The notes under the pieces were generated by a model, which saw nothing but the letters and a program-made list of their open reading frames with translations, was not told where the DNA came from and ran no database searches. A program made the translations under genes and the position numbers. 41,440 bases of DNA from a virus, in IMG/VR virus record IMGVR_UViG_3300002461_000793, positions 1-41,440 of that record. One strand, given 5' to 3'. Of this stretch, positions 5,018-37,040 are shown in pieces (position 1 is the first letter of the stretch; every line of letters begins with the position of its first letter).

Positions 5018-6004
5018 TCACACCAGAGCCAGAGCTCGTTCCAGGGCTTGGGTCTTCAGGCCGTCGCCGCGACCGAACCAGGCCGAATCCATCCGGTGGC
5101 TGGCAGTCGACGCGCGAGCGTGATGGTCGACGAACTCAGTCACCGCATTCACTACGCCCCAGGCAGTACCCTCGGTGCCGGCCAAGGTGCCGCCCATCGC
5201 AGAGCTACCGAACAGATCCATGATCTTCTGGAACTGCTTGGACTTCCGAACGTCTTCACCCAGGACCGTCTTCGTCTCGGTCAGGAGAGTCGCCACGAAC
5301 TCCGAGGCACGTTCCTGCGCCATCGAGACCGAAGCCAACTGGCGGGCAGACTTCATGAAGGTACCGAAGTTGTCGCGGGCGAGACCGAGTTGCTGCTTGA
5401 CGGACTCAGCGTCGAAGTGGCTCGTGTGGCGGATGCTGACTTCGCGCTTGGCCTTACCAGACAGAGCCATGCTGAGGGTGTTGTTGCACACCACGCGGAC
5501 AGTCGTGAAGCGAGCCGTGGTGGGCATAGTGCCGTCGCAGCTGCTGCTCAGCAGAAGGTAGCCATCCACCTTGTCCTCACCGACCACAACCGCCGACTCA
5601 CCGATGCTGGCCAGCGCCCAGAACTTCCGACCGCCGAACATGGTACCGGCCGTGTGCAGCTTGTAGCCGTTGCCGTCCACGAGGTCGCGGAAGAACTCCA
5701 GCACTTCCTTCGGCTGGACAACCTTGTACTTGGGGCTGACGATGCCCAGGGAGGCTTTCGTGTCCTCGCGGAACAGCACCAGCTGGTCGTCCATCGTCTC
5801 CATGACCGTGGAAGGATCTGCCAAGTCGCCGGTGGCGTAGCGGACCTTGGAGCGGCGGATGCGCCAGTCCATCCCTGCGGCCACCTGCCACTGCTCGAGG
5901 GTGGCGTCCTGCTCCAGCTCTTGGCCAAGCCCGTGCCACGGCGTTTCGCCGACGTAGGCCATTTCGGTGAAGCCGTTCTTGCGGATCGTGAGTGCGTGCG
6001 ACAT
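5018..6004 (-). CDS. DUF932-like (phage/plasmid-like) protein, 328 aa
   Basis: Trimmed to ATG 6004, which has AGGAG 6 nt upstream. The overall sequence recalls the DUF932/TIGR03299 family (memory based). Confidence 0.75.
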   Translation of the reverse strand: MSHALTIRKNGFTEMAYVGETPWHGLGQELEQDATLEQWQVAAGMDWRIRRSKVRYATGDLADPSTVMETMDDQLVLFREDTKASLGIVSPKYKVVQPKEVLEFFRDLVDGNGYKLHTAGTMFGGRKFWALASIGESAVVVGEDKVDGYLLLSSSCDGTMPTTARFTTVRVVCNNTLSMALSGKAKREVSIRHTSHFDAESVKQQLGLARDNFGTFMKSARQLASVSMAQERASEFVATLLTETKTVLGEDVRKSKQFQKIMDLFGSSAMGGTLAGTEGTAWGVVNAVTEFVDHHARASTASHRMDSAWFGRGDGLKTQALERALALV

Positions 6005-6048
6005 GGTCATCTCCTGGGTTGATGCGGTCGTGCGTTGACCGTGAGTAG

Positions 6049-6090
6049 ATTCTAACCAACCGCCAGGTTCTTGTACACAGTTATTTTCAT
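6049..6090 (-). promoter_or_regulatory. Conserved promoter-like element A
   Basis: Minus strand: TGAAAATAACTGTGTACAAG-N-TAGAAT. TGTACA (6077..6072), a 17-nt spacer and TAGAAT (6054..6049), about 45 nt upstream of ATG 6004. Confidence 0.6.
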
Positions 6091-6323
6091 CGCCGATCAA
6101 AAAATTTTTTCAGGTACTCTCCATTTTCAATGATCCATCTAAGTACGGTTTCGTTAGGAACGTTTTCGTAATTGACGTCGACTATTTGGTTGCCGCTTTC
6201 GTACCACTGGCAAAAATCAAGGTTGGCTTGGTGTGATTCAGCCAACTTGAGTGACGTGAATAGCGTCCCATCCGTAGCCTTGTACGACTGAACCACTTGT
6301 ACCACCGAGATCTTCTTTTTCAT
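6087..6323 (-). CDS. Hypothetical protein (78 aa) in a low-GC island
   Basis: ATG 6323 overlaps the ligase stop (TGATG). This stretch is visibly more AT-rich than its neighbours. Confidence 0.55.
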   Translation of the reverse strand: MKKKISVVQVVQSYKATDGTLFTSLKLAESHQANLDFCQWYESGNQIVDVNYENVPNETVLRWIIENGEYLKKFFDRR

Positions 6324-7860: not shown

Positions 7861-8195
7861 GCTCCCTCCCTTTTCTCAGACTCCCACTCCAAAAGGATGG
7901 CGGCTCCAGCATACACCATAGCCCCCAGCACCTCGTTGACAAACTCCGTTCCGACCTTGGTGGACGCCGCTTCCTCCAGCTTCTTGGCGGCCTGGCCAGT
8001 GAGAAACCCGCGGCCGTGAAGCTTGCCATAGTGGTGCCACGGCTGCTCCATGAAGGGGACGGTGTTGCCTCCGTGCCTCTGCCCCTTGCCGTACATAGCC
8101 TGGTTGATGGCGGCCATGAAGACAGGATACAGCGGGTGGGACGTCATGGCTTCTGTGGCGCCGTTGACGTCTTCAATCTCTTGACTCTTCTGCAT
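7842..8195 (-). CDS. Hypothetical protein (117 aa)
   Basis: Trimmed to ATG 8195, which has GGAGG 6 nt upstream. The motif YGKGQRHGG...FLTGQAAKKLEEA recalls helical phage nucleotide-hydrolase-like proteins. I cannot assign it. Confidence 0.6.
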   Translation of the reverse strand: MQKSQEIEDVNGATEAMTSHPLYPVFMAAINQAMYGKGQRHGGNTVPFMEQPWHHYGKLHGRGFLTGQAAKKLEEAASTKVGTEFVNEVLGAMVYAGAAILLEWESEKREGAWSTLS

Positions 8196-8838
8196 AGAGC
8201 ACCTCCAAAAGAACAGGGTAAGTAGCGAGCAAGACATCTCGGCATTTCTCCGCGATTTCGCGATGCTCCTTCTGCGTACCTGGCTCGCACCGCAGTTGAA
8301 CGTAGTGGATCCAACTCCGCACGGATCCGGCCATGTACATCCTGGAAGGCGTCATGCCCTCAGGCAGAACTGCTCTGGCCACCTCCTTGGCGACCCCAAG
8401 CTCAAGGGCCTGGTTGTAGATGGAGCTGGCGAACGCGGCAACGTCGCGCTGCTTGCGTGTCCACCAGTTGCCCAGCGCTTCGTCGTCATTCTCCAGTGAC
8501 CCCTGTCGGTTCTTGGTGTCTTGTAGCCTTGCCTCCCTCACTTGGTAGGTGTCGGCCACCTTCGAGTAGCGCTGGCTGAACTCCTGAAAGCTGAAGGACC
8601 GGTGGCGAAGGATCTGTCGGGCGATGTCTCTGGTCGTCTCGATGTACATCACCATGTGAGCCATCTCGAACGGCGACCAGTGGTTGTTGCGTGACATGTA
8701 CCCCAGCAACCTTTCTGCCGTGCCGTGGTTGTCCTGGTTCTCGGGGTTGGACACGCGAGCCACGAACGCAATGAACTCGAGTGGGAGCATGTCCGTGGTG
8801 GGGGTAGTCAAGGCCACCAGCTCGACGACCGGCTTCAC
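8173..8838 (-). CDS. thyX: Flavin-dependent thymidylate synthase ThyX
   Basis: ThyX signature RHRSFSFQEFSQRYS (RHRxxSxxxxSxR). Confidence 0.95.
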   Translation of the reverse strand: MKPVVELVALTTPTTDMLPLEFIAFVARVSNPENQDNHGTAERLLGYMSRNNHWSPFEMAHMVMYIETTRDIARQILRHRSFSFQEFSQRYSKVADTYQVREARLQDTKNRQGSLENDDEALGNWWTRKQRDVAAFASSIYNQALELGVAKEVARAVLPEGMTPSRMYMAGSVRSWIHYVQLRCEPGTQKEHREIAEKCRDVLLATYPVLLEVLYAEESRD

Positions 8839-9057: not shown

Positions 9058-9516
9058 TCATCCCCTCCTGCTGGCAAGTTCGTTGGCGATCTGGATCTCG
9101 TCCACCACGGCCCAATCCTCGCTGAGGATATCGGTCTGGCTGGCCAGCCATGGCACCTTGGCGCCGTTGGGGTAGGCCGGATGGTAGAGCGGGTAGACCA
9201 TGTAGATGTAGGGCAGCGTCATGTCTGACTTCGAGTCCGGCTCGCGAAGCCGCAGCCACATGTACTTGCCGTTCCACCCGGACCTTGCCACGGAACGCCC
9301 TGTCTTCAAGGCCTCCAGCGCCAGACCAAAGGTCATCTGGTCGATGGGCATGTAGGTCTCCTCAAAAAGGTCGCCCGGTAACCACGCCTCGTGTCCGTCA
9401 CCGTAGAGAACGCGGTACCCAGGAGTGGCGGTGTCGTTGCTCCCACCCTTGGTGAAGCGAATTTCGCGGTAGGCTGAGACCACCTTGATCCCGATGTACC
9501 TCTTCAACTCAGACAT
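9058..9516 (-). CDS. Two-domain protein: N4 gp49/Sf6 gp66-like N-terminus plus DUF2829 (Tad2-like) C-terminus
   Basis: N-terminal YIGIKVVSAY...GYRVLYGDGHEAWLPGDLFEETY. C-terminal MTFGLALEALKTGRSVARSGWNGKYMWL...PYIYM...VPWLASQTDILSEDWAVV, the classic DUF2829 pattern. Confidence 0.8.
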   Translation of the reverse strand: MSELKRYIGIKVVSAYREIRFTKGGSNDTATPGYRVLYGDGHEAWLPGDLFEETYMPIDQMTFGLALEALKTGRSVARSGWNGKYMWLRLREPDSKSDMTLPYIYMVYPLYHPAYPNGAKVPWLASQTDILSEDWAVVDEIQIANELASRRG

Positions 9517-33364: not shown

Positions 33365-33729
33365 GCCCACTGATTCGAGCCCAGCACAAATTCCTCATCG
33401 ACGTCAGCAAACTCATCATCTGGGCCAACACCAGAGACTGGGTTCTGACCGGAGGAGAGTTGTTCAGAACCGTGGAGCAGCAGCGGATCCACGTCAAGGC
33501 CGGCAGATCCAGAACCATGAACAGTCAGCACGGCATGAGGCTGGCCATTGACTTCAACATCTTTGTTGACGGTCAGCTCTGCTACGACAAGAAAGTGCTG
33601 GCACCGATGGGGGCGTTCTGGGAGAGCATGGATCCACTGAACTCTTGGGGAGGTAATGGGATCAAGCTCGTCGACACCCCTCACTTCTCAAGGGGCATCG
33701 ACAAGCCTGAGTTTCGCAGGGTCACCTAG
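33361..33729 (+). CDS. Endolysin, peptidase M15 (VanY/L-Ala-D-Glu peptidase-like)
   Basis: Trimmed to ATG 33361. Zinc ligands in SQHGMRLAIDF and VDTPHF. Confidence 0.8.
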   Translation: MSPLIRAQHKFLIDVSKLIIWANTRDWVLTGGELFRTVEQQRIHVKAGRSRTMNSQHGMRLAIDFNIFVDGQLCYDKKVLAPMGAFWESMDPLNSWGGNGIKLVDTPHFSRGIDKPEFRRVT

Positions 33730-34184
33730 TCAGGATACTTCTGCCAGAACCGGCCTGCGGTCTGCCACAACTCTCTTGCCGGGTGCGGGTACTCCTCCTT
33801 GAAGATGATGTAGTGGCAGGAGGTGTTCAGGAGAAGCTTCGTGCAGGTCATGCAGGGCGACGTGGTAACGTAGCACGCGGTAATCTGAGAGACATCCCTG
33901 CATTGCAGGAGCGCGTTCTGCTCAGCATGGATCGCCTGGCACATGTCAAGGTTGGTGCCGCTTGGAGATTGAGCTCCTGGACAAGCCCACCGATAATGGT
34001 CGTCGATGACTCCAGGTTCGTTGCAGTGCGCTAGACCAGCGGCCACGCCGTTGTACCCGGTCGACAGGATGTGCCCCTTCTCGTTGATCAGAACCGCCCC
34101 CACCTGACGCCTGAGGCATGTGGACCTCAAAGCGCAGATTTCGGCGATCCTCATCGCCCAGTCGTTGATGTGTATCCTGCTCAT
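33726..34184 (-). CDS. dCMP deaminase
   Basis: HAEQNAL and PCMTCTKLL zinc motifs. ATG 34184 forms an ATGA overlap with the ThyA-like stop. Confidence 0.9.
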   Translation of the reverse strand: MSRIHINDWAMRIAEICALRSTCLRRQVGAVLINEKGHILSTGYNGVAAGLAHCNEPGVIDDHYRWACPGAQSPSGTNLDMCQAIHAEQNALLQCRDVSQITACYVTTSPCMTCTKLLLNTSCHYIIFKEEYPHPARELWQTAGRFWQKYPD

Positions 34185-34975
34185 GCCAGGCTCCACCAGC
34201 GGAGACTGACAGACCCGTCCTTGATCTCTCTGAGGGTCTTGAAAAGCTCGTGCTCGCTCTCCCAGAGAACGTCAGGGGTTTGCGGGTAGCCTTCACCGAT
34301 GGCCTTGTTGTGGTATTCGACGCATCTTCCAGCATCCACCTTGTTGGGCTCGTACAGGTGGCTGTTGGCCATGGTCAGGTAGAGACTACCAGGCTCCACG
34401 GTTTGATCAAACCGGGAATCGTGGTTCAGCCTGCAGCAGACCAGATGCGCCAGCATGCTGAAGTTGAACACATCGTACGGAAAACCCAGCCACGCGTCTG
34501 ACGACCGCATGAACACATGTGCGTTCAGGTAGTTGTCTCTGACAGAGAAGAAGATGCTCACCGTGCACGGAACATCCTTTGTCTCAGGCGGGTTCTCTCG
34601 CCAGATGTTGATGCCGGCCTGACGCGAGTAGGGATCAGCGCAAAGCTTGCTGATAACATAATCCAGCTGCCCAACGATCTTGGGCCCGTACGCGCCGAAG
34701 AAGGTCTGGCCGTCGTCGGAGAAGTTGGCCATCCGACTGTTGTACGGCGCGATTGTCTCCACTCGATCATCACCAGTGAGGATCCAATGCGCCTCGGCCG
34801 CCATGAACCTGTAGTTCAGGCTCCTCAGCTGGTTGACTACCACCGGGTACCGCATGTTCATGACTACGGTATGGTGAAGAAGCTCCGTGCACGAAAAGCC
34901 CCTGGGGCGGGATGGAAGCCCCATCATCAGGATGGTGTTGAGAAGGTTTGCCCACACGTTGTTTGCTGTTCTCAT
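34181..34975 (-). CDS. ThyA-superfamily pyrimidine C5 transferase; predicted dCMP hydroxymethylase-like
   Basis: DVPCTVSIFFSVRDNYLNAHVFMRSSDAWLGFPYDVFNF aligns with T4 gp42 FMCTNTVQYLIRDKKINAVVNMRSNDVVFGFRNDYAW. Both have Cys-Thr, and both have Asp at the position that is Asn177 in ThyA. Confidence 0.8.
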   Translation of the reverse strand: MRTANNVWANLLNTILMMGLPSRPRGFSCTELLHHTVVMNMRYPVVVNQLRSLNYRFMAAEAHWILTGDDRVETIAPYNSRMANFSDDGQTFFGAYGPKIVGQLDYVISKLCADPYSRQAGINIWRENPPETKDVPCTVSIFFSVRDNYLNAHVFMRSSDAWLGFPYDVFNFSMLAHLVCCRLNHDSRFDQTVEPGSLYLTMANSHLYEPNKVDAGRCVEYHNKAIGEGYPQTPDVLWESEHELFKTLREIKDGSVSLRWWSLA

Positions 34976-34984
34976 GATTCTCTC

Positions 34985-35881
34985 CTAGATCATAGATATC
35001 AGTCTGTAAGGCCTGTCGAAGTGGAATCTCTTCCACGCCTGCGGGTGCGGCACCAGATCATGCTTGACCATCCTCTCAGTCAGCCTAGAGGAGGCGACAC
35101 GGCCCAGAGCGATGATGCGTCGAGTGCTGCCGTCGCCCAGCATCGACAGATCTTGATCCGAGTTCACCCAGAGAAGATCTTGCTCCTTCACGTTGGCAGA
35201 GGCCAGTTGCCTGGTGAGCCACCTGCTGCAACCAGCGTCGCCAAACGAGGCAAACGGCCACTGGTAGAAGGTGTCGTTGTCCTTGTGGTGTGCAAACTCG
35301 TCACCTACAAGAACCACGTTGGCCGCCAGGTTGCCAGCCGACCTGGTATGAAGAGGATGGCACGACCAGGATACCGCCGACAGTAGGTCTCCGTCCAACT
35401 CGCCTGTCTCGTAATCGTACAGCATCGTGGGAAGTTCTGACTTCACCTCGGCGTTGTAGATGTCGTAGACCTTAGACAGCTGAATGTCGTCATCCAGCAT
35501 CTCAGTGGCTCGCCTTGCCATGAAGTTGGCAATGCACACCTCCTTGTCAGGCAGGCACAACACCACCGAGGCCCCGCATCTCATGGCCAACCTCTCCAAC
35601 ATCCTGACGTCTGCCGGATCCAGCCTGTTGGCGCCACCACGGAACACGCGGCCGTAGGGAATCTCCGACAACCAGCATCGGTCAAGGACCACGTCCTGAT
35701 AGCCCATGAGAGCAGGCAGCATGGCCTCTACGTACATCCTGGCCAGCCCGAACGTAACACGCGGCATGGCTGGGAAGTGCACGTAGAGGGCGTTGTGCTT
35801 TACCCTCAGCTGATGGGCCAGTGTGGTCTTGCCAGCTCCATCAGGTCCTTCCACGATGTAGACTCTCTTGCAGGTCTCCAT
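34985..35881 (-). CDS. dNMP (thymidylate-like) kinase fused to a UDG-superfamily domain
   Basis: P-loop EGPDGAGKTTLA and DR motif VVLDRCWLSEIPYG. The C-terminal part, VVLVGDEFAHH..WPF..GDAGCSRWL..LLWVN..RIIALGRVA..VPHPQAW, follows family 4 UDG motif order (GEAPG..PF..G.AG..L..N..LG..HPS). Confidence 0.8.
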   Translation of the reverse strand: METCKRVYIVEGPDGAGKTTLAHQLRVKHNALYVHFPAMPRVTFGLARMYVEAMLPALMGYQDVVLDRCWLSEIPYGRVFRGGANRLDPADVRMLERLAMRCGASVVLCLPDKEVCIANFMARRATEMLDDDIQLSKVYDIYNAEVKSELPTMLYDYETGELDGDLLSAVSWSCHPLHTRSAGNLAANVVLVGDEFAHHKDNDTFYQWPFASFGDAGCSRWLTRQLASANVKEQDLLWVNSDQDLSMLGDGSTRRIIALGRVASSRLTERMVKHDLVPHPQAWKRFHFDRPYRLISMI

Positions 35882-35883
35882 GG

Positions 35884-36282
35884 CTACTCTCCAAGGATCT
35901 GGCGGATCTTGTGCTCAGGAGGAACGAAGCCCGGAGGCTTGACCACGTCAAACGAGGAACCTCGCTTCGAGGCATCGGCACTGGGCGTTCGCATCTTGCT
36001 CATGTTGGCGTTGTGCACCGCTGCAAACGCCTCATTCCACTGACCTGGGAAGACCCCCATGAAGAGAGCCGTCCCCATGGCGACGTAGGTCAGGTCAATG
36101 AGGGCATCGAGGGCCTTCACCTTGTCTCCAGCTTCGCAGGCTTCCTTGAACTCGGCCAGCTCCTCTTCGAGGAACCCAGTCCTGTACTTAAGAACCTCAG
36201 GATCGGAGAACAGAAGGTTGTCGTGGCCCAGAGGAAGGCAGAAAACCAAGTGAAACTCGTACACCTTGTCCATCTCAGTCAT
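35884..36282 (-). CDS. All-alpha MazG/HisE-like NTP pyrophosphohydrolase
   Basis: FLEEELAEFKEA...ALDALIDLTYVAMG...VHNANMSK (EExxE...D metal motif). ATG 36282 forms an ATGA overlap with the methyltransferase stop. Confidence 0.8.
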   Translation of the reverse strand: MTEMDKVYEFHLVFCLPLGHDNLLFSDPEVLKYRTGFLEEELAEFKEACEAGDKVKALDALIDLTYVAMGTALFMGVFPGQWNEAFAAVHNANMSKMRTPSADASKRGSSFDVVKPPGFVPPEHKIRQILGE

Positions 36283-37040
36283 TTCAGTCTCCTGCAAACC
36301 CAGAGATTGTTCCTGGAGTGGTCGGGGTACAACGGAGCGAAGATGCAGCTGATCGCGTCGTTGTCATAGTACTTGGCCAGTCGGTCCTTCACGGCTTTGA
36401 TGGCGGTCTCAATCTCCAAGTTATCATAGACCTTTCCAATGTGCTTGATGTCCATGAAGGTGCCGTGCCGCTGCTCCACCGTAAGCCCAGCCTTGAGCAC
36501 CGCCTTGTACAACTCATCCACCGTGTACTCGTGGATGTGGTTGGCGGCGTGGCGCTTGCCGTCGTAGCACGGGGTGGACATGAGCATGATACCACCAGGC
36601 TTCAGGCAGTTGAAGCAGGCCTTTAGCAACTTGGCACCGTGTTCCACCTTCATGTGCTCGATGACTTCATAGTGGACCACCACGTCGAAGCCCTTGGCGT
36701 TGTCTCCAGTCAGAAGATTCTTCCAGTTCTCGACGAAGTTGAACTCACCGTGGAACGTCAGGCGCTGGCTGTTGGAGGGCTTCAGCTTATTCAGATCCAC
36801 CCCGGTGTAGTGGCCAACGTGCGGAGCAGCGCCACCGGTCAGGATCTTGCTGAGAGGCCTGTCTTCGCCGCAGCCGATCTCCAGGACATTGTCCTTGGCG
36901 GTGATGAACCGGCGGGCGAAGCTCCAGCGGAAGAAATGGGCGGAGTAGTCCCGGTGCAGGGTACGCCCATGACCTGCCTCCCTCAGTTGAGTGGTGTCGT
37001 ATTCGCGAACGTCGCGTTGAACCTCACGTGTCTTTGGCAT
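36279..37040 (-). CDS. Class I SAM-dependent methyltransferase fold (small-molecule/O-MTase-like, not a classical DNA MTase)
   Basis: Motif I VLEIGCGEDRP preceded by HRDYSAHFFRWSFARRF. Post-motif GGIMLMSTP. No DPPY/NPPY or PCQ/ENV motifs. Confidence 0.85.
   Translation of the reverse strand: MPKTREVQRDVREYDTTQLREAGHGRTLHRDYSAHFFRWSFARRFITAKDNVLEIGCGEDRPLSKILTGGAAPHVGHYTGVDLNKLKPSNSQRLTFHGEFNFVENWKNLLTGDNAKGFDVVVHYEVIEHMKVEHGAKLLKACFNCLKPGGIMLMSTPCYDGKRHAANHIHEYTVDELYKAVLKAGLTVEQRHGTFMDIKHIGKVYDNLEIETAIKAVKDRLAKYYDNDAISCIFAPLYPDHSRNNLWVCRRLK

Follow-up and report, generated by a model that had tools for sequence, protein, structure and literature searches.

The open reading frame at positions 34,985 to 35,881 of the window (the whole 41,440-nucleotide stretch of viral DNA that was analyzed) encodes a dNMP kinase joined to a divergent uracil-DNA glycosylase (UDG)-fold domain, resembling family 4 UDGs and lacking an Fe–S cluster. 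It belongs to an operon with the order SAM-dependent methyltransferase, MazG, kinase::UDG-like fusion, ThyA homologue and dCMP deaminase. The window also encodes ThyX and a phage ligase and PolA. The features considered here, all on the minus strand, are as follows.

8173 to 8838, minus strand: ThyX, FAD-dependent thymidylate synthase (149 bits with TIGR02170, whose cut-off is 87.9)
33726 to 34196, minus strand: dCMP deaminase (PF00383, E=3e-16; phrog_174)
34181 to 34975, minus strand: ThyA homologue of the cytosine type, probable dCMP 5-hydroxymethylase (PF00303, E=4e-19; MilA match)
34985 to 35881, minus strand: whole ORF of the dNMP kinase::UDG-like fusion (298 amino acids plus stop, ATG start, uninterrupted)
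34988 to 35359, minus strand: C-terminal minimal family-4-like UDG-fold domain without Fe–S, residues 175–298 (Foldseek against PDB and BFVD, hhalign)
35027 to 35047, minus strand: motif B equivalent HPQAWKR, residues 279–285 (H279 99%, P280 100%, R285 97%)
35162 to 35170, minus strand: WVN, residues 238–240 (N240 at 97%)
35252 to 35260, minus strand: WPF, residues 208–210 (P209 and F210 at 99%)
35291 to 35308, minus strand: altered motif A VGDEFA, residues 192–197 (G193 99%; position 194 acidic in 92%)
35360 to 35401, minus strand: variable linker, residues 161–174 (alignment columns poorly conserved and indel-rich)
35402 to 35881, minus strand: N-terminal YorR/thymidylate-kinase-like dNMP kinase domain, residues 1–160 (phrog_761, YorR, Foldseek)
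35672 to 35683, minus strand: DRCW, residues 67–70 (D67, R68 and W70 at 100%)
35822 to 35848, minus strand: P-loop GPDGAGKTT, residues 12–20 (G12, D14, G17 and K18 at 100%)
35884 to 36297, minus strand: MazG/PRA-PH-type NTP pyrophosphohydrolase, candidate dCTPase (PF01503, E=1e-12; phrog_671)
36279 to 37040, minus strand: SAM-dependent methyltransferase (PF13489, E=1.6e-15; weak UbiG/Hen1 similarity)

The motifs quoted in the original prediction lie at these residues, together with ALG at 258–260. The fusion was confirmed to be real. Separate adjoining genes for the kinase and the UDG-like protein do occur in a distant relative (L015), as would be expected had two genes been joined here by a sequencing or assembly frameshift, but such an artefact is vanishingly improbable and was rejected: the ORF is continuous in the window, and independent assemblies yielded more than 120 full-length homologues, every one of them fused, as are those of AXL3 (gp29), PW916 and MW202621. 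A protein identical to that of the window, P0001, is recorded for a contig of 41,440 bp. Moreover, nearly all of the 150 listed cluster representatives are 290–350 amino acids long with the UDG-like domain at the C-terminus. The single-gene architecture originally predicted thus recurs, conserved, across hundreds of independent contigs as well as in AXL3 and PW916, which are cultured phages. An AF2 model of the full-length fusion reached a pLDDT of 91.7 and a pTM of 0.90.

Consistent with the prediction of a thymidylate-kinase-like N-terminal half, phrog_761 ('thymidylate kinase') matched residues 7–148 (E=1.4e-18), the family profile matched YorR (PDB 2axp, E=7.5e-6), and Foldseek searches with the full-length model returned YorR, deoxyadenosine kinase and thymidylate kinases (TMK) with E values of 1e-7 to 1e-5, the entries 3kb2 (YorR), 2jaq (deoxyadenosine kinase) and 5xbh (TMK) lying at 1e-7 to 1e-6. 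The kinase fold, with P-loop and DRx motif, is present and its catalytic positions are 95–100% conserved (ca. 240–260 sequences); we take DRCW to be the DR(Y/H/C) motif of thymidylate kinases. Matches to curated families stayed under their cut-offs, namely PF02223 (21.8 bits against 27) and TIGR00041 (24.6 against 83.25), and were confined to the P-loop region. The substrate would be modified dCMP, as suggested by the adjoining ThyA homologue with Asp in its specificity position.

Sequence searches with the UDG-like half of the window protein produced no match in Pfam or PHROGs, only sub-threshold matches to PF03167 for two relatives (E=0.0019 and 0.11), and no UDG among PDB sequences by phmmer or hmmsearch, the profile included. 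Foldseek with the full-length model returned kinases only and no UDG, so a domain-only model was needed. This AF2 model (pLDDT 83.9) showed an alpha/beta fold with a central four-stranded parallel sheet (strands 189–193, 236–240, 255–259 and 275–277), its least confident part being the loop from motif A to PF (pLDDT 54–66). In the PDB, family 4 UDGs and UdgX accounted for all of its top 36 Foldseek matches (E=1e-4 to 3e-3, probability 1.00, TMq 0.50–0.60), the next ones having E>0.1. Alignment of the family profile with four family 4/UdgX sequences by hhalign gave a probability of 90.6% (E=1.3e-6), rising to 97.4% (E=4.2e-11, 118 columns) with divergent members added. Both significant matches support membership of the C-terminal domain in the UDG superfamily at the fold and profile level, and the family 4 motif order read from the bare sequence was recovered with the same pairing in the hhalign alignment. 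The UdgX–dUMP entry 6ajp is among the Foldseek matches of the domain.

Conservation of the pocket was assessed in 270 relatives, taken as sequences from 50%-identity clusters. In the hhalign alignment, G193-D194 correspond to G40-E41 of the Thermus thermophilus motif GEGPG, and H279-P280 and R285 to H155-P156 and R161 of HPAYLLR. P209-F210 align with P53-F54 of the T. thermophilus enzyme, the Phe being the base-stacking residue of family 4, for which the equivalent F55 of Sulfolobus tokodaii UDG has been described as stacking the base (PMC11078745). N240 aligns with N80 (T. thermophilus) or N82 (S. tokodaii), the reader of the Watson–Crick face of the base, a role documented for N82 (PMC11078745). 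Motif A Gly-acid, Pro-Phe, Asn, His-Pro and the Arg at +6 are each 92–100% conserved. The alteration of motif A that had been pointed out is real in that GE(A/G)PG is not kept: the Gly-acid pair is retained and Pro-Gly is replaced by F196 (86%) and Ala or Gly at 197. The Fe–S ligands are likewise missing, as predicted, C174 and C218 being the only Cys in the UDG-like half; the family 4 segments bearing C13/C16/C83/C100 (T. thermophilus numbering) are deleted. Residues D203, Q207, E233, W221, W238, D242 and Q281 are invariant and family-specific. The mean net charge of the domain, a crude proxy for surface electrostatics, is −3.5 compared with +5 for T. thermophilus UDG, and three basic residues are conserved. 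Combined, the alignments suggest that an intact pyrimidine pocket is kept, made up of Gly-acid, stacking Phe, Asn, His-Pro and Arg +6.

The loss of motif A Pro-Gly, the Fe–S module and about 60 residues could point instead to a UDG-derived structural or protein-interaction scaffold, without base chemistry, tethering the kinase to the replisome or to pathway enzymes, for which inactivated UDG domains on phage replication proteins such as N4-like DNA polymerases offer a precedent. We consider this rather improbable, since the near-invariant positions are exactly those of the base pocket, and in a pure scaffold there would be no need for Phe, Asn, His-Pro and Arg to match the register of active UDGs.

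The genes flanking the fusion were analyzed for the pathway that it might serve. The five-gene order is kept in the window, AXL3, L003/L004, L005, the P0119 contig, L009, L010 and L012, and its most conserved member is the SAM-methyltransferase, with 69–77% identity in L009–L012. The best PDB match of the ThyA homologue is the CMP hydroxymethylase MilA (E=2.9e-16), and the protein scores far under the NCBIfam cut-offs for thymidylate synthases. It retains the catalytic Cys and contains the motifs GFPYD and DVPCT, with Thr at the position of Ec H147 and Asp at that of Ec N177. This Asp indicates action on dCMP, an argument on specificity into which the ThyA-like protein of L014 does not enter, its specificity residue ('GCYGAN') being ambiguous; sequence comparison thus makes the homologue a probable enzyme of the dCMP hydroxymethylase type, either a hydroxymethylase or a methyltransferase. 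ThyX supplies dTMP, leaving the ThyA homologue free for another role. The MazG-type protein would act on dCTP. The co-occurrence with ThyA-like genes that had been sought is found here within the conserved gene order, and the Asp-bearing, MilA-like nature of the adjoining homologue supports the modified-dCMP pathway of the original prediction. DNA of AXL3 resists 35 of 37 restriction enzymes, including all those tested with G/C-containing sites, and is cut only by AT-only cutters; in MetaGPA, Thymidylat_synt, PRA-PH, dCMP deaminase and ligase domains are linked to cytosine-modified contigs. The cassette very probably makes a modified cytosine.

Such a modification would render phage DNA immune to a glycosylase retargeted to unmodified cytosine, which could wreck host DNA or purge cytosine from phage DNA, a purpose that T4 achieves with cytosine-specific nucleases. 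This had been one of the functions first proposed for the domain, and two observations agree with it: modification of a G/C base through a cytosine-type ThyA homologue is evident in the phage group, and the UDG fold lends itself to retargeting towards cytosine derivatives, Brig1 being an example. It is nonetheless quite improbable. Asn240, at the Watson–Crick face, is found in 97% of members, whereas Brig1 depends on Glu; engineered cytosine-DNA glycosylases require replacement of Asn by Asp, which also speaks against it; and the domain is acidic.

A second proposal was joint action on DNA, in which the UDG-like domain would flip out 5-hydroxymethylcytosine and the kinase would phosphorylate its hydroxymethyl group in a post-replicative hypermodification, as 5-HMUDK does. 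In its favour, a base-flipping fold is covalently attached to a P-loop kinase in an apparently rigid packing, judging from the model, the cassette includes a conserved tailoring-type methyltransferase and unassigned ORFs, and the modification of AXL3 DNA could be of such a kind. We regard it as highly unlikely, because the dNMP motifs of thymidylate kinases are kept and the nearest structures are dNMP or dN kinases, because the kinase-only orthologue of HTVC200P adjoins the same ThyA type, and because split and kinase-less variants exist. Furthermore, the downstream pyrophosphorylase/transferase homologue was not found in the ORFs scanned, and modified dCMP requires a dNMP kinase in any case. 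Improbable, too, is a novel 5-hydroxymethyl-pyrimidine enzyme or reader acting together with the fused kinase in place of a repair glycosylase, either a base-flipping DNA 5-hmC kinase initiating a cytosine hypermodification that the strictly co-conserved O-methyltransferase-like enzyme might complete, or a nucleotide N-glycosidase or gatekeeper editing the pool of modified dNMPs; if true, it would constitute a new UDG-fold activity and define the AXL3-like G/C modification.

The distribution of the fusion and its variants was then considered. Matches were obtained for 1,200 cluster representatives (50% clustering), all restricted to phages, so the same architecture sought in other phages does exist, and no earlier description of a kinase–UDG fusion was found in literature searches; it is common in uncultured phages and apparently undescribed. 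The earlier remark that this fold is not known fused to a kinase has to be qualified, for the architecture is common and gp315 of phage G, a more canonical version, is already included in phrog_761. Kinase and UDG-like protein are split into two genes in L015, L014 carries the UDG-like module without a P-loop and with a degenerate N-terminal half, and RsoM2USA encodes a standalone UDG-like protein, RsoM2USA_394, among whose neighbours no kinase or nucleotide-metabolism context was found. HTVC200P has a kinase-only orthologue adjoining the same ThyA type, and lacks both the UDG-like module and the deaminase. When only the C-terminal half was used as query in a word-indexed protein search, a single match, P0121, was obtained; this and other short 'standalone' matches were rejected as true standalones, being 5'-truncated fusions. 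The split, kinase-less and kinase-only variants indicate that the UDG-like module is autonomous and has a function of its own. HTVC200P, phage G and the main clade conform to a correlation between deaminase and UDG-like module, but no deaminase was matched in the stretches of L014 and L015 that were retrieved, making the link imperfect.

These variants also tell against the proposal that the domain confers on the kinase its specificity for the modified dNMP, since the UDG-like part survives free of the kinase (L014, L015, RsoM2USA) and the HTVC200P kinase exists without it. A non-catalytic module that binds a pyrimidine nucleotide (dUMP, dCMP, hm-dCMP or a corresponding triphosphate) and has a regulatory, gating or substrate-channelling role towards the kinase or the neighbouring enzymes of a nucleotide-synthesizing complex is unlikely but has several points in its favour. 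The UDG-like domain is almost always kinase-fused, the pTM of 0.90 suggests a rigid two-domain packing in the model, its acidity is unusual for a DNA-binding protein, mononucleotide binding by UDG folds is possible (UdgX–dUMP, 6ajp), and the additional polar residues that are invariant might make contact with a sugar-phosphate. Against these stand the occurrence of the module alone or with a degenerate N-terminal half, its absence from HTVC200P, where kinase and the same ThyA type are paired, and the 97% conservation of the motif B Arg at +6, the aligned counterpart of the HPxxLLR Arg in the DNA-acting family 4 and UdgX enzymes.

The explanation that we tentatively favour is that the UDG-like domain acts as a glycosylase on uracil-type bases and so keeps phage DNA clean. 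The phage pathway would swap cytosine for a 5-substituted cytosine, probably 5-hydroxymethylcytosine, perhaps further tailored. MazG would convert dCTP to dCMP, deaminase and ThyX would provide dTMP, and module 1 (residues 1–160) would phosphorylate the modified dCMP made by the adjoining Asp-type ThyA homologue, like gp1 of T4. Module 2 (residues 175–298) would flip out and excise a uracil-type base from DNA, the target being uracil, or 5-hydroxymethyluracil arising from phage deaminase and kinase acting on dCMP or hm-dCMP, and repair of the abasic sites left behind would fall to phage PolA and ligase or to the base excision repair of the host. Conceivably, the two modules are joined for the sake of co-expression and co-localization and not of a joint chemical step.

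Several lines of evidence are in agreement with a uracil-type glycosylase. The domain is homologous in fold and motifs to family 4 UDG, and its pocket is conserved, unlike in the N4-like polymerase UDG domains, which have lost catalytic residues. The Watson–Crick-face position holds Asn as in uracil enzymes, in contrast to the Glu needed by cytosine-directed Brig1. The module persists when split from the kinase or without it (L015, L014, RsoM2USA), and HTVC200P, with the kinase only, lacks deaminase and UDG-like module alike. The five-gene order, cytosine-type ThyA, ThyX and the restriction resistance of AXL3 fit the scheme, as do the ligase and PolA encoded in the window and the MetaGPA domain links; a precedent is given by the active UDG–PolA fusions, which clear dU in phages encoding both a deaminase and a ThyA homologue. 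On the other side, motif A has lost Pro-Gly (F196, A197), about 60 family 4 residues are deleted, Fe–S module included, the loop from motif A to PF is the least confident in the model, and 8% of members have another residue in place of the acid at 194. The domain is acidic with three conserved basic residues, whereas polymerase-fused UDG domains are positively charged; the deaminase link is imperfect, given the retrieved stretches of L014 and L015; many invariant, family-specific residues, such as those listed above, have no role in the scheme; and the rationale for joining a repair glycosylase to a kinase is conjectural.

Members of this family are annotated as 'thymidylate kinase' or 'hypothetical', the UDG-fold module being missed by Pfam, NCBIfam and most PHROG matches. 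The cassette, with the fusion at its centre, occurs in siphoviruses that are abundant in the environment and in AXL3 and PW916, two phages in culture that have been considered for therapy. If the glycosylase is active, precursor synthesis would have DNA sanitation built into it, a complement to the recently described UDG–polymerase fusions; if inactive, the UDG fold would have gained a new ligand or activity. Cultures of AXL3 and its host exist, which puts the question within direct experimental reach. A cluster-free UDG core of 130 residues may also interest protein engineers.

In comparison with known systems, the domain shares with family 4 UDG (UDGa; 1ui0 of T. thermophilus, 1l9g/1vk2 of T. 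maritima, 4zby of S. tokodaii) and UdgX the fold with its four-stranded core and the motif order and register, including Asn after beta2 and Leu-Gly after beta3. By contrast, it spans ca. 130 amino acids instead of ca. 190–205 and, since each of the four segments bearing a Cys is missing, has no 4Fe-4S cluster. Its motif A is GE.FA instead of GE(A/G)PG, its motif B, HPQxWKRF, also differs, and a 3-residue insertion contains the invariant D203, Y206 and Q207. Unlike family 4, it is acidic, missed by PF03167 and kinase-fused.

UDG domains are also found on phage A-family DNA polymerases, active in SPO1-like and SP15-like and inactive in N4-like ones (Missoury et al., bioRxiv 10.1101/2025.03.26.645540), and the Foldseek BFVD matches of the domain include the SP-15, Colly_1 and RHph_Y65 polymerases. 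In both cases a UDG fold sits on a replication or nucleotide enzyme where pyrimidine metabolism is rewired with a deaminase and a ThyA homologue. The partner is, however, a polymerase there and a dNMP kinase here, where the domain is C-terminal. Polymerase-fused domains are positively charged and the kinase-fused one acidic; the former phages modify thymidine, whereas the present cassette is of the cytosine type; and UDG activity has been demonstrated for polymerase fusions, while the kinase-fused domain is known from sequence and model.

Anti-phage glycosylases with a UDG fold include Brig1 (PMC11078745; bioRxiv 10.1101/2025.10.29.685425), a host-encoded, standalone enzyme that removes glucosyl-hmC and requires a Glu at the Watson–Crick face (PMC11078745). 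Brig1 is likewise a divergent UDG fold with S. tokodaii family 4 as best structural match and a modified-pyrimidine context, but the window domain is phage-encoded, kinase-fused and keeps Asn. 5-HMUDK is likewise a P-loop kinase of a phage base-modification cluster, whereas the window kinase has dNMP motifs. No UDG-fold domain is known on 5-HMUDK. When 50,697 phage records were searched by tblastn with the fusion, no match was listed under the classic 5-HMUDK phage genera, so that no similarity was detected by this indirect route.

The closest counterpart in architecture is gp315 of Bacillus phage G (phrog_761), annotated merely as thymidylate kinase, with the same YorR-like kinase and C-terminal UDG-like domain, adjoining a dCMP deaminase and an Asp-type ThyA homologue; phage G is the only cultured phage with this subtype. 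Gp315 is ca. 21% identical, its UDG half is more canonical (AQNPGG, FTNLVPYP, HPAYVKRF), and the cluster carries an alpha-glucosyltransferase in place of the SAM-methyltransferase and MazG. In T4, hm-dCTP is produced with gp56 dCTPase, gp42 dCMP hydroxymethylase, gp1 dNMP kinase and Cd deaminase (PMC8670742). The same logic of an NTP pyrophosphatase, a ThyA-family dCMP-modifying enzyme, a dNMP kinase and a dCMP deaminase would underlie the present cassette, with the differences that T4 gp1 belongs to another kinase lineage and has no UDG-like domain, and that the window cassette has ThyX and a SAM-methyltransferase.

The kinase::UDG-like fusion is encoded by an uninterrupted frame with an ATG start, tightly packed with its neighbours: the stop of the MazG-type gene lies 2 nt upstream of its ATG, and the ThyA-like gene starts 9 nt downstream of its stop codon. 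All the motifs quoted for the fusion in the original prediction were found, each at the residue given. An identical protein is recorded from a contig of 41,440 bp, so the window seems to span a complete phage contig; its structural genes form a plus-strand module, and its minus strand encodes replication and nucleotide metabolism (PolA, ligase, primase, helicase, exonuclease, ThyX). The replication module also contains a 360-aa DUF932 protein (5018..6100, minus strand; PF06067, E=6e-62; phrog_1221), and a 152-aa ORF (9058..9516, minus strand) carries a Tad2-like (Thoeris anti-defence 2) domain (PF11195, E=5e-21). The genes considered here are:

8173..8838, minus strand, ThyX (TIGR02170, above the curated cut-off)
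34181..34975, minus strand, ThyA homologue (Asp at E. coli TS N177, Thr at H147)
34985..35881, minus strand, kinase::UDG-like fusion (298 codons)
36279..37040, minus strand, SAM-dependent methyltransferase (Methyltransf_23; weak likeness to the O-methyltransferases UbiG and Hen1)

Residues 7-148 of the fusion were matched by phrog_761, 'thymidylate kinase' (E=1.4e-18), and a profile of 48 homologues retrieved the SPbeta prophage kinase YorR (PDB 2axp, E=7.5e-6). Foldseek searches with the full-length AF2 model (pLDDT 91.7, pTM 0.90) yielded YorR, deoxyadenosine kinase and thymidylate kinases. Curated thymidylate-kinase models matched the fusion at the P-loop only, with scores under their cut-offs. 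Combined, these results place the N-terminal half among dNMP/dN-kinase-fold enzymes, in the YorR lineage, and its identification as a cellular Tmk orthologue was rejected. The P-loop, D67-R68, R97, R123 and E127 are kept in 95-100% of about 240-260 relatives.

The C-terminal half gave no match in Pfam, PHROGs or PDB sequence searches and was swamped by kinase matches in Foldseek searches with the whole model, so residues 165-298 were modelled alone (pLDDT 83.9). The best 36 PDB matches of this model were all family 4 uracil-DNA glycosylases (UDGs; Thermotoga maritima, Thermus thermophilus, S. tokodaii) or UdgX (E=1e-4 to 3e-3, probability 1.00, TMq 0.50-0.60), later ones having E>0.1. Alignment by hhalign of the C-terminal family profile with four family 4 sequences taken from the PDB (the T. 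thermophilus query being identical to 1ui0) gave 90.6% probability (E=1.3e-6), rising to 97.4% (E=4.2e-11, 118 columns) when divergent members were added. It paired V-G193-D194 with G40-E41 of GEGPG, P209-F210 with P53-F54, N240 with N80, L259-G260 with L120-G121, and H279-P280-x4-R285 with H155-P156-x4-R161. Pfam UDG matched two standalone relatives below threshold (E=0.0019 and 0.11). Three family 4 segments are deleted, precisely those bearing the four Fe-S cysteines, and the C-terminal half contains only two Cys. The initial structural reading, a divergent family-4-like UDG fold devoid of Fe-S cysteines, was therefore correct. At the fold level the module belongs to the UDG superfamily; since it lacks two family 4 hallmarks, the Fe-S cluster and GE(A/G)PG, it is best placed in a new, minimal subfamily akin to family 4.

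The same fusion proved widespread, being present in the cultured phages AXL3 and PW916 and in the complete metagenomic genome MW202621. A word-indexed protein search found 759 relatives, the best 120 of which were all full length (295-317 aa). When the C-terminal domain alone was used as a profile, an exhaustive search yielded 1,200 cluster representatives (569 at E<=1e-10, 107 at E<=1e-30); among the 150 listed, nearly all were of 290-350 aa with the domain C-terminal, and shorter ones began mid-kinase, being truncated. Full-length relatives, the number of representatives and the cultured phages rule out a joining of two genes by frameshift or assembly. The fusion's sole occurrences in bacterial genome collections were on contigs of phage size that had been binned into MAGs. 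In PW916 (OL960029 44495-45415) and MW202621 (16321-17196) the gene is unannotated in the deposits and was located by tblastn in an annotation gap.

UDG domains on phage polymerases are already known (bioRxiv 10.1101/2025.03.26.645540). The searchable literature, the AXL3 paper (PMC7504290), the PW916 paper and MetaGPA (PMC8670742) yielded no description of a UDG fold joined to a dNMP kinase; the architecture was nonetheless already present, silently, within phrog_761, to which the 331-aa gp315 of Bacillus phage G aligns over its full length (E=3e-67). The family merits attention for its size, its conserved pocket and the testing that cultured AXL3 and PW916 allow.

The gene order SAM-methyltransferase, MazG/PRA-PH, kinase::UDG-like, ThyA homologue, dCMP deaminase is the same in the window, AXL3 and three more metagenomic contigs, and also in the MAG-binned contigs L009, L010 and L012. 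A Thiobacillus-binned MAG contig (L011, JBEQCG010000013, 5200-7400) carries methyltransferase, MazG, fusion and deaminase; no ThyA homologue was detectable there, the fusion-deaminase gap being only ~590 nt. The ThyA homologue of the window scores far under thymidylate synthase equivalog cut-offs, lacks the 'IWDEW' tryptophans, and best matches in the PDB the CMP 5-hydroxymethylase MilA (E=2.9e-16, versus ~5e-11 for true thymidylate synthases). Given also its Asp at N177, a thymidylate synthase identity was rejected. N177 and H147 are the two positions that MetaGPA highlights in comparing cytosine-modified with unmodified contigs of phages (PMC8670742). Its counterparts are annotated 'thymidylate synthase' (AXL3) and 'deoxyuridylate hydroxymethyltransferase' (PW916), probably wrongly as to substrate. 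As a ThyX is encoded in addition, dTMP synthesis and cytosine modification are served by separate enzymes.

Of 37 restriction enzymes, 35 fail to cut AXL3 DNA, the exceptions being the AT-only cutters TasI and Tru1I (PMC7504290); in MetaGPA, joint occurrence of the Thymidylat_synt, PRA-PH, dCMP deaminase and ligase domains is reported as specific to cytosine-modified contigs (PMC8670742). Together with the ThyA type and ThyX, this makes a 5-substituted dCTP the most probable product of the cassette. Phage G gp313-gp319 (NC_023719 227484-240143) comprise an alpha-glucosyltransferase, the gp315 fusion, a dCMP deaminase (gp317) and an Asp-type ThyA homologue (gp319), which suggests glucosylated 5-hydroxymethylcytosine. 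This context and the similarity to MilA favour hydroxymethyl as the substituent, methyl being the alternative. The fusion kinase would have a role equivalent to T4 gp1; that it serves as a base-flipping kinase of hmC in DNA seems very improbable. The SAM-methyltransferase, the most conserved cassette protein (69-77% identity where the fusion shows 52-58%), occupies the slot of the glucosyltransferase in T4 and phage G and of the 5hmC carbamoyltransferase in MetaGPA contigs, and by this analogy may tailor the hydroxymethyl group, e.g. by O-methylation.

Variant arrangements show the two modules to be separable; each would be functional alone, and both are tied to the ThyA-type pathway. Phage G gp315, itself among the Foldseek matches of the domain model, has more canonical C-terminal motifs (AQNPGG, FTNLVPYP, HPAYVKRF). 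In locus L015 kinase and UDG-like protein are two genes side by side; L014 retains an intact UDG-like half, its N-terminal half lacking the P-loop and detectable kinase similarity. A standalone UDG-like protein, of 152 aa, occurs in the Ralstonia jumbo phage RsoM2USA. In Pelagibacter phage HTVC200P the kinase stands alone, adjoining an Asp-type ThyA homologue, and the whole genome lacks UDG-like module, deaminase, MazG and methyltransferase. L014 (CALMOR010000062, 3524..6369) encodes, with its P-loop-less UDG-like protein, a ThyA-like protein of 349 aa, whose specificity site is unusual ('GCYGAN'), and HD-domain-like and MazG-like proteins.

Across 270 sequences, G193, P209, F210 and H279 are 99% conserved, P280 100%, N240 and R285 97%, and position 194 is acidic in 92%; the family-specific D203, Q207, W221, E233, W238, D242, Q281, F286 and Y292 are likewise strongly conserved. 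From this pattern we infer a working base pocket rather than a decayed scaffold, which is what the UDG domain of N4-like polymerases has become (bioRxiv 10.1101/2025.03.26.645540); a scaffolding role is accordingly improbable here. The cytosine-directed UDG-fold protein Brig1 needs Glu at the Watson-Crick-face position (PMC11078745), whereas the kinase-fused module keeps Asn, which points to a uracil-type base as its target and leaves an anti-cytosine glycosylase with rather little credence.

The module may, tentatively, be a sanitising glycosylase: U or 5hmU generated by the phage deaminase/kinase route would be excised from DNA, and the sites repaired by phage PolA and ligase. Against this, motif A is altered and its loop modelled at low confidence, ~60 residues are lost, the net charge is acidic (mean -3.5) versus basic polymerase-fused domains, the family-specific invariant residues are unexplained, and a repair enzyme is joined to a kinase for no obvious reason. 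A nucleotide-binding regulator is an unlikely alternative. The sanitising glycosylase is favoured by the conserved pocket, by the Asn and by its best-documented analogue, the catalytically active UDG domain that A-family polymerases of hypermodified-pyrimidine phages carry, which clears dU derived from residual dUTP; these genomes also encode a deaminase and a ThyA homologue (bioRxiv 10.1101/2025.03.26.645540).
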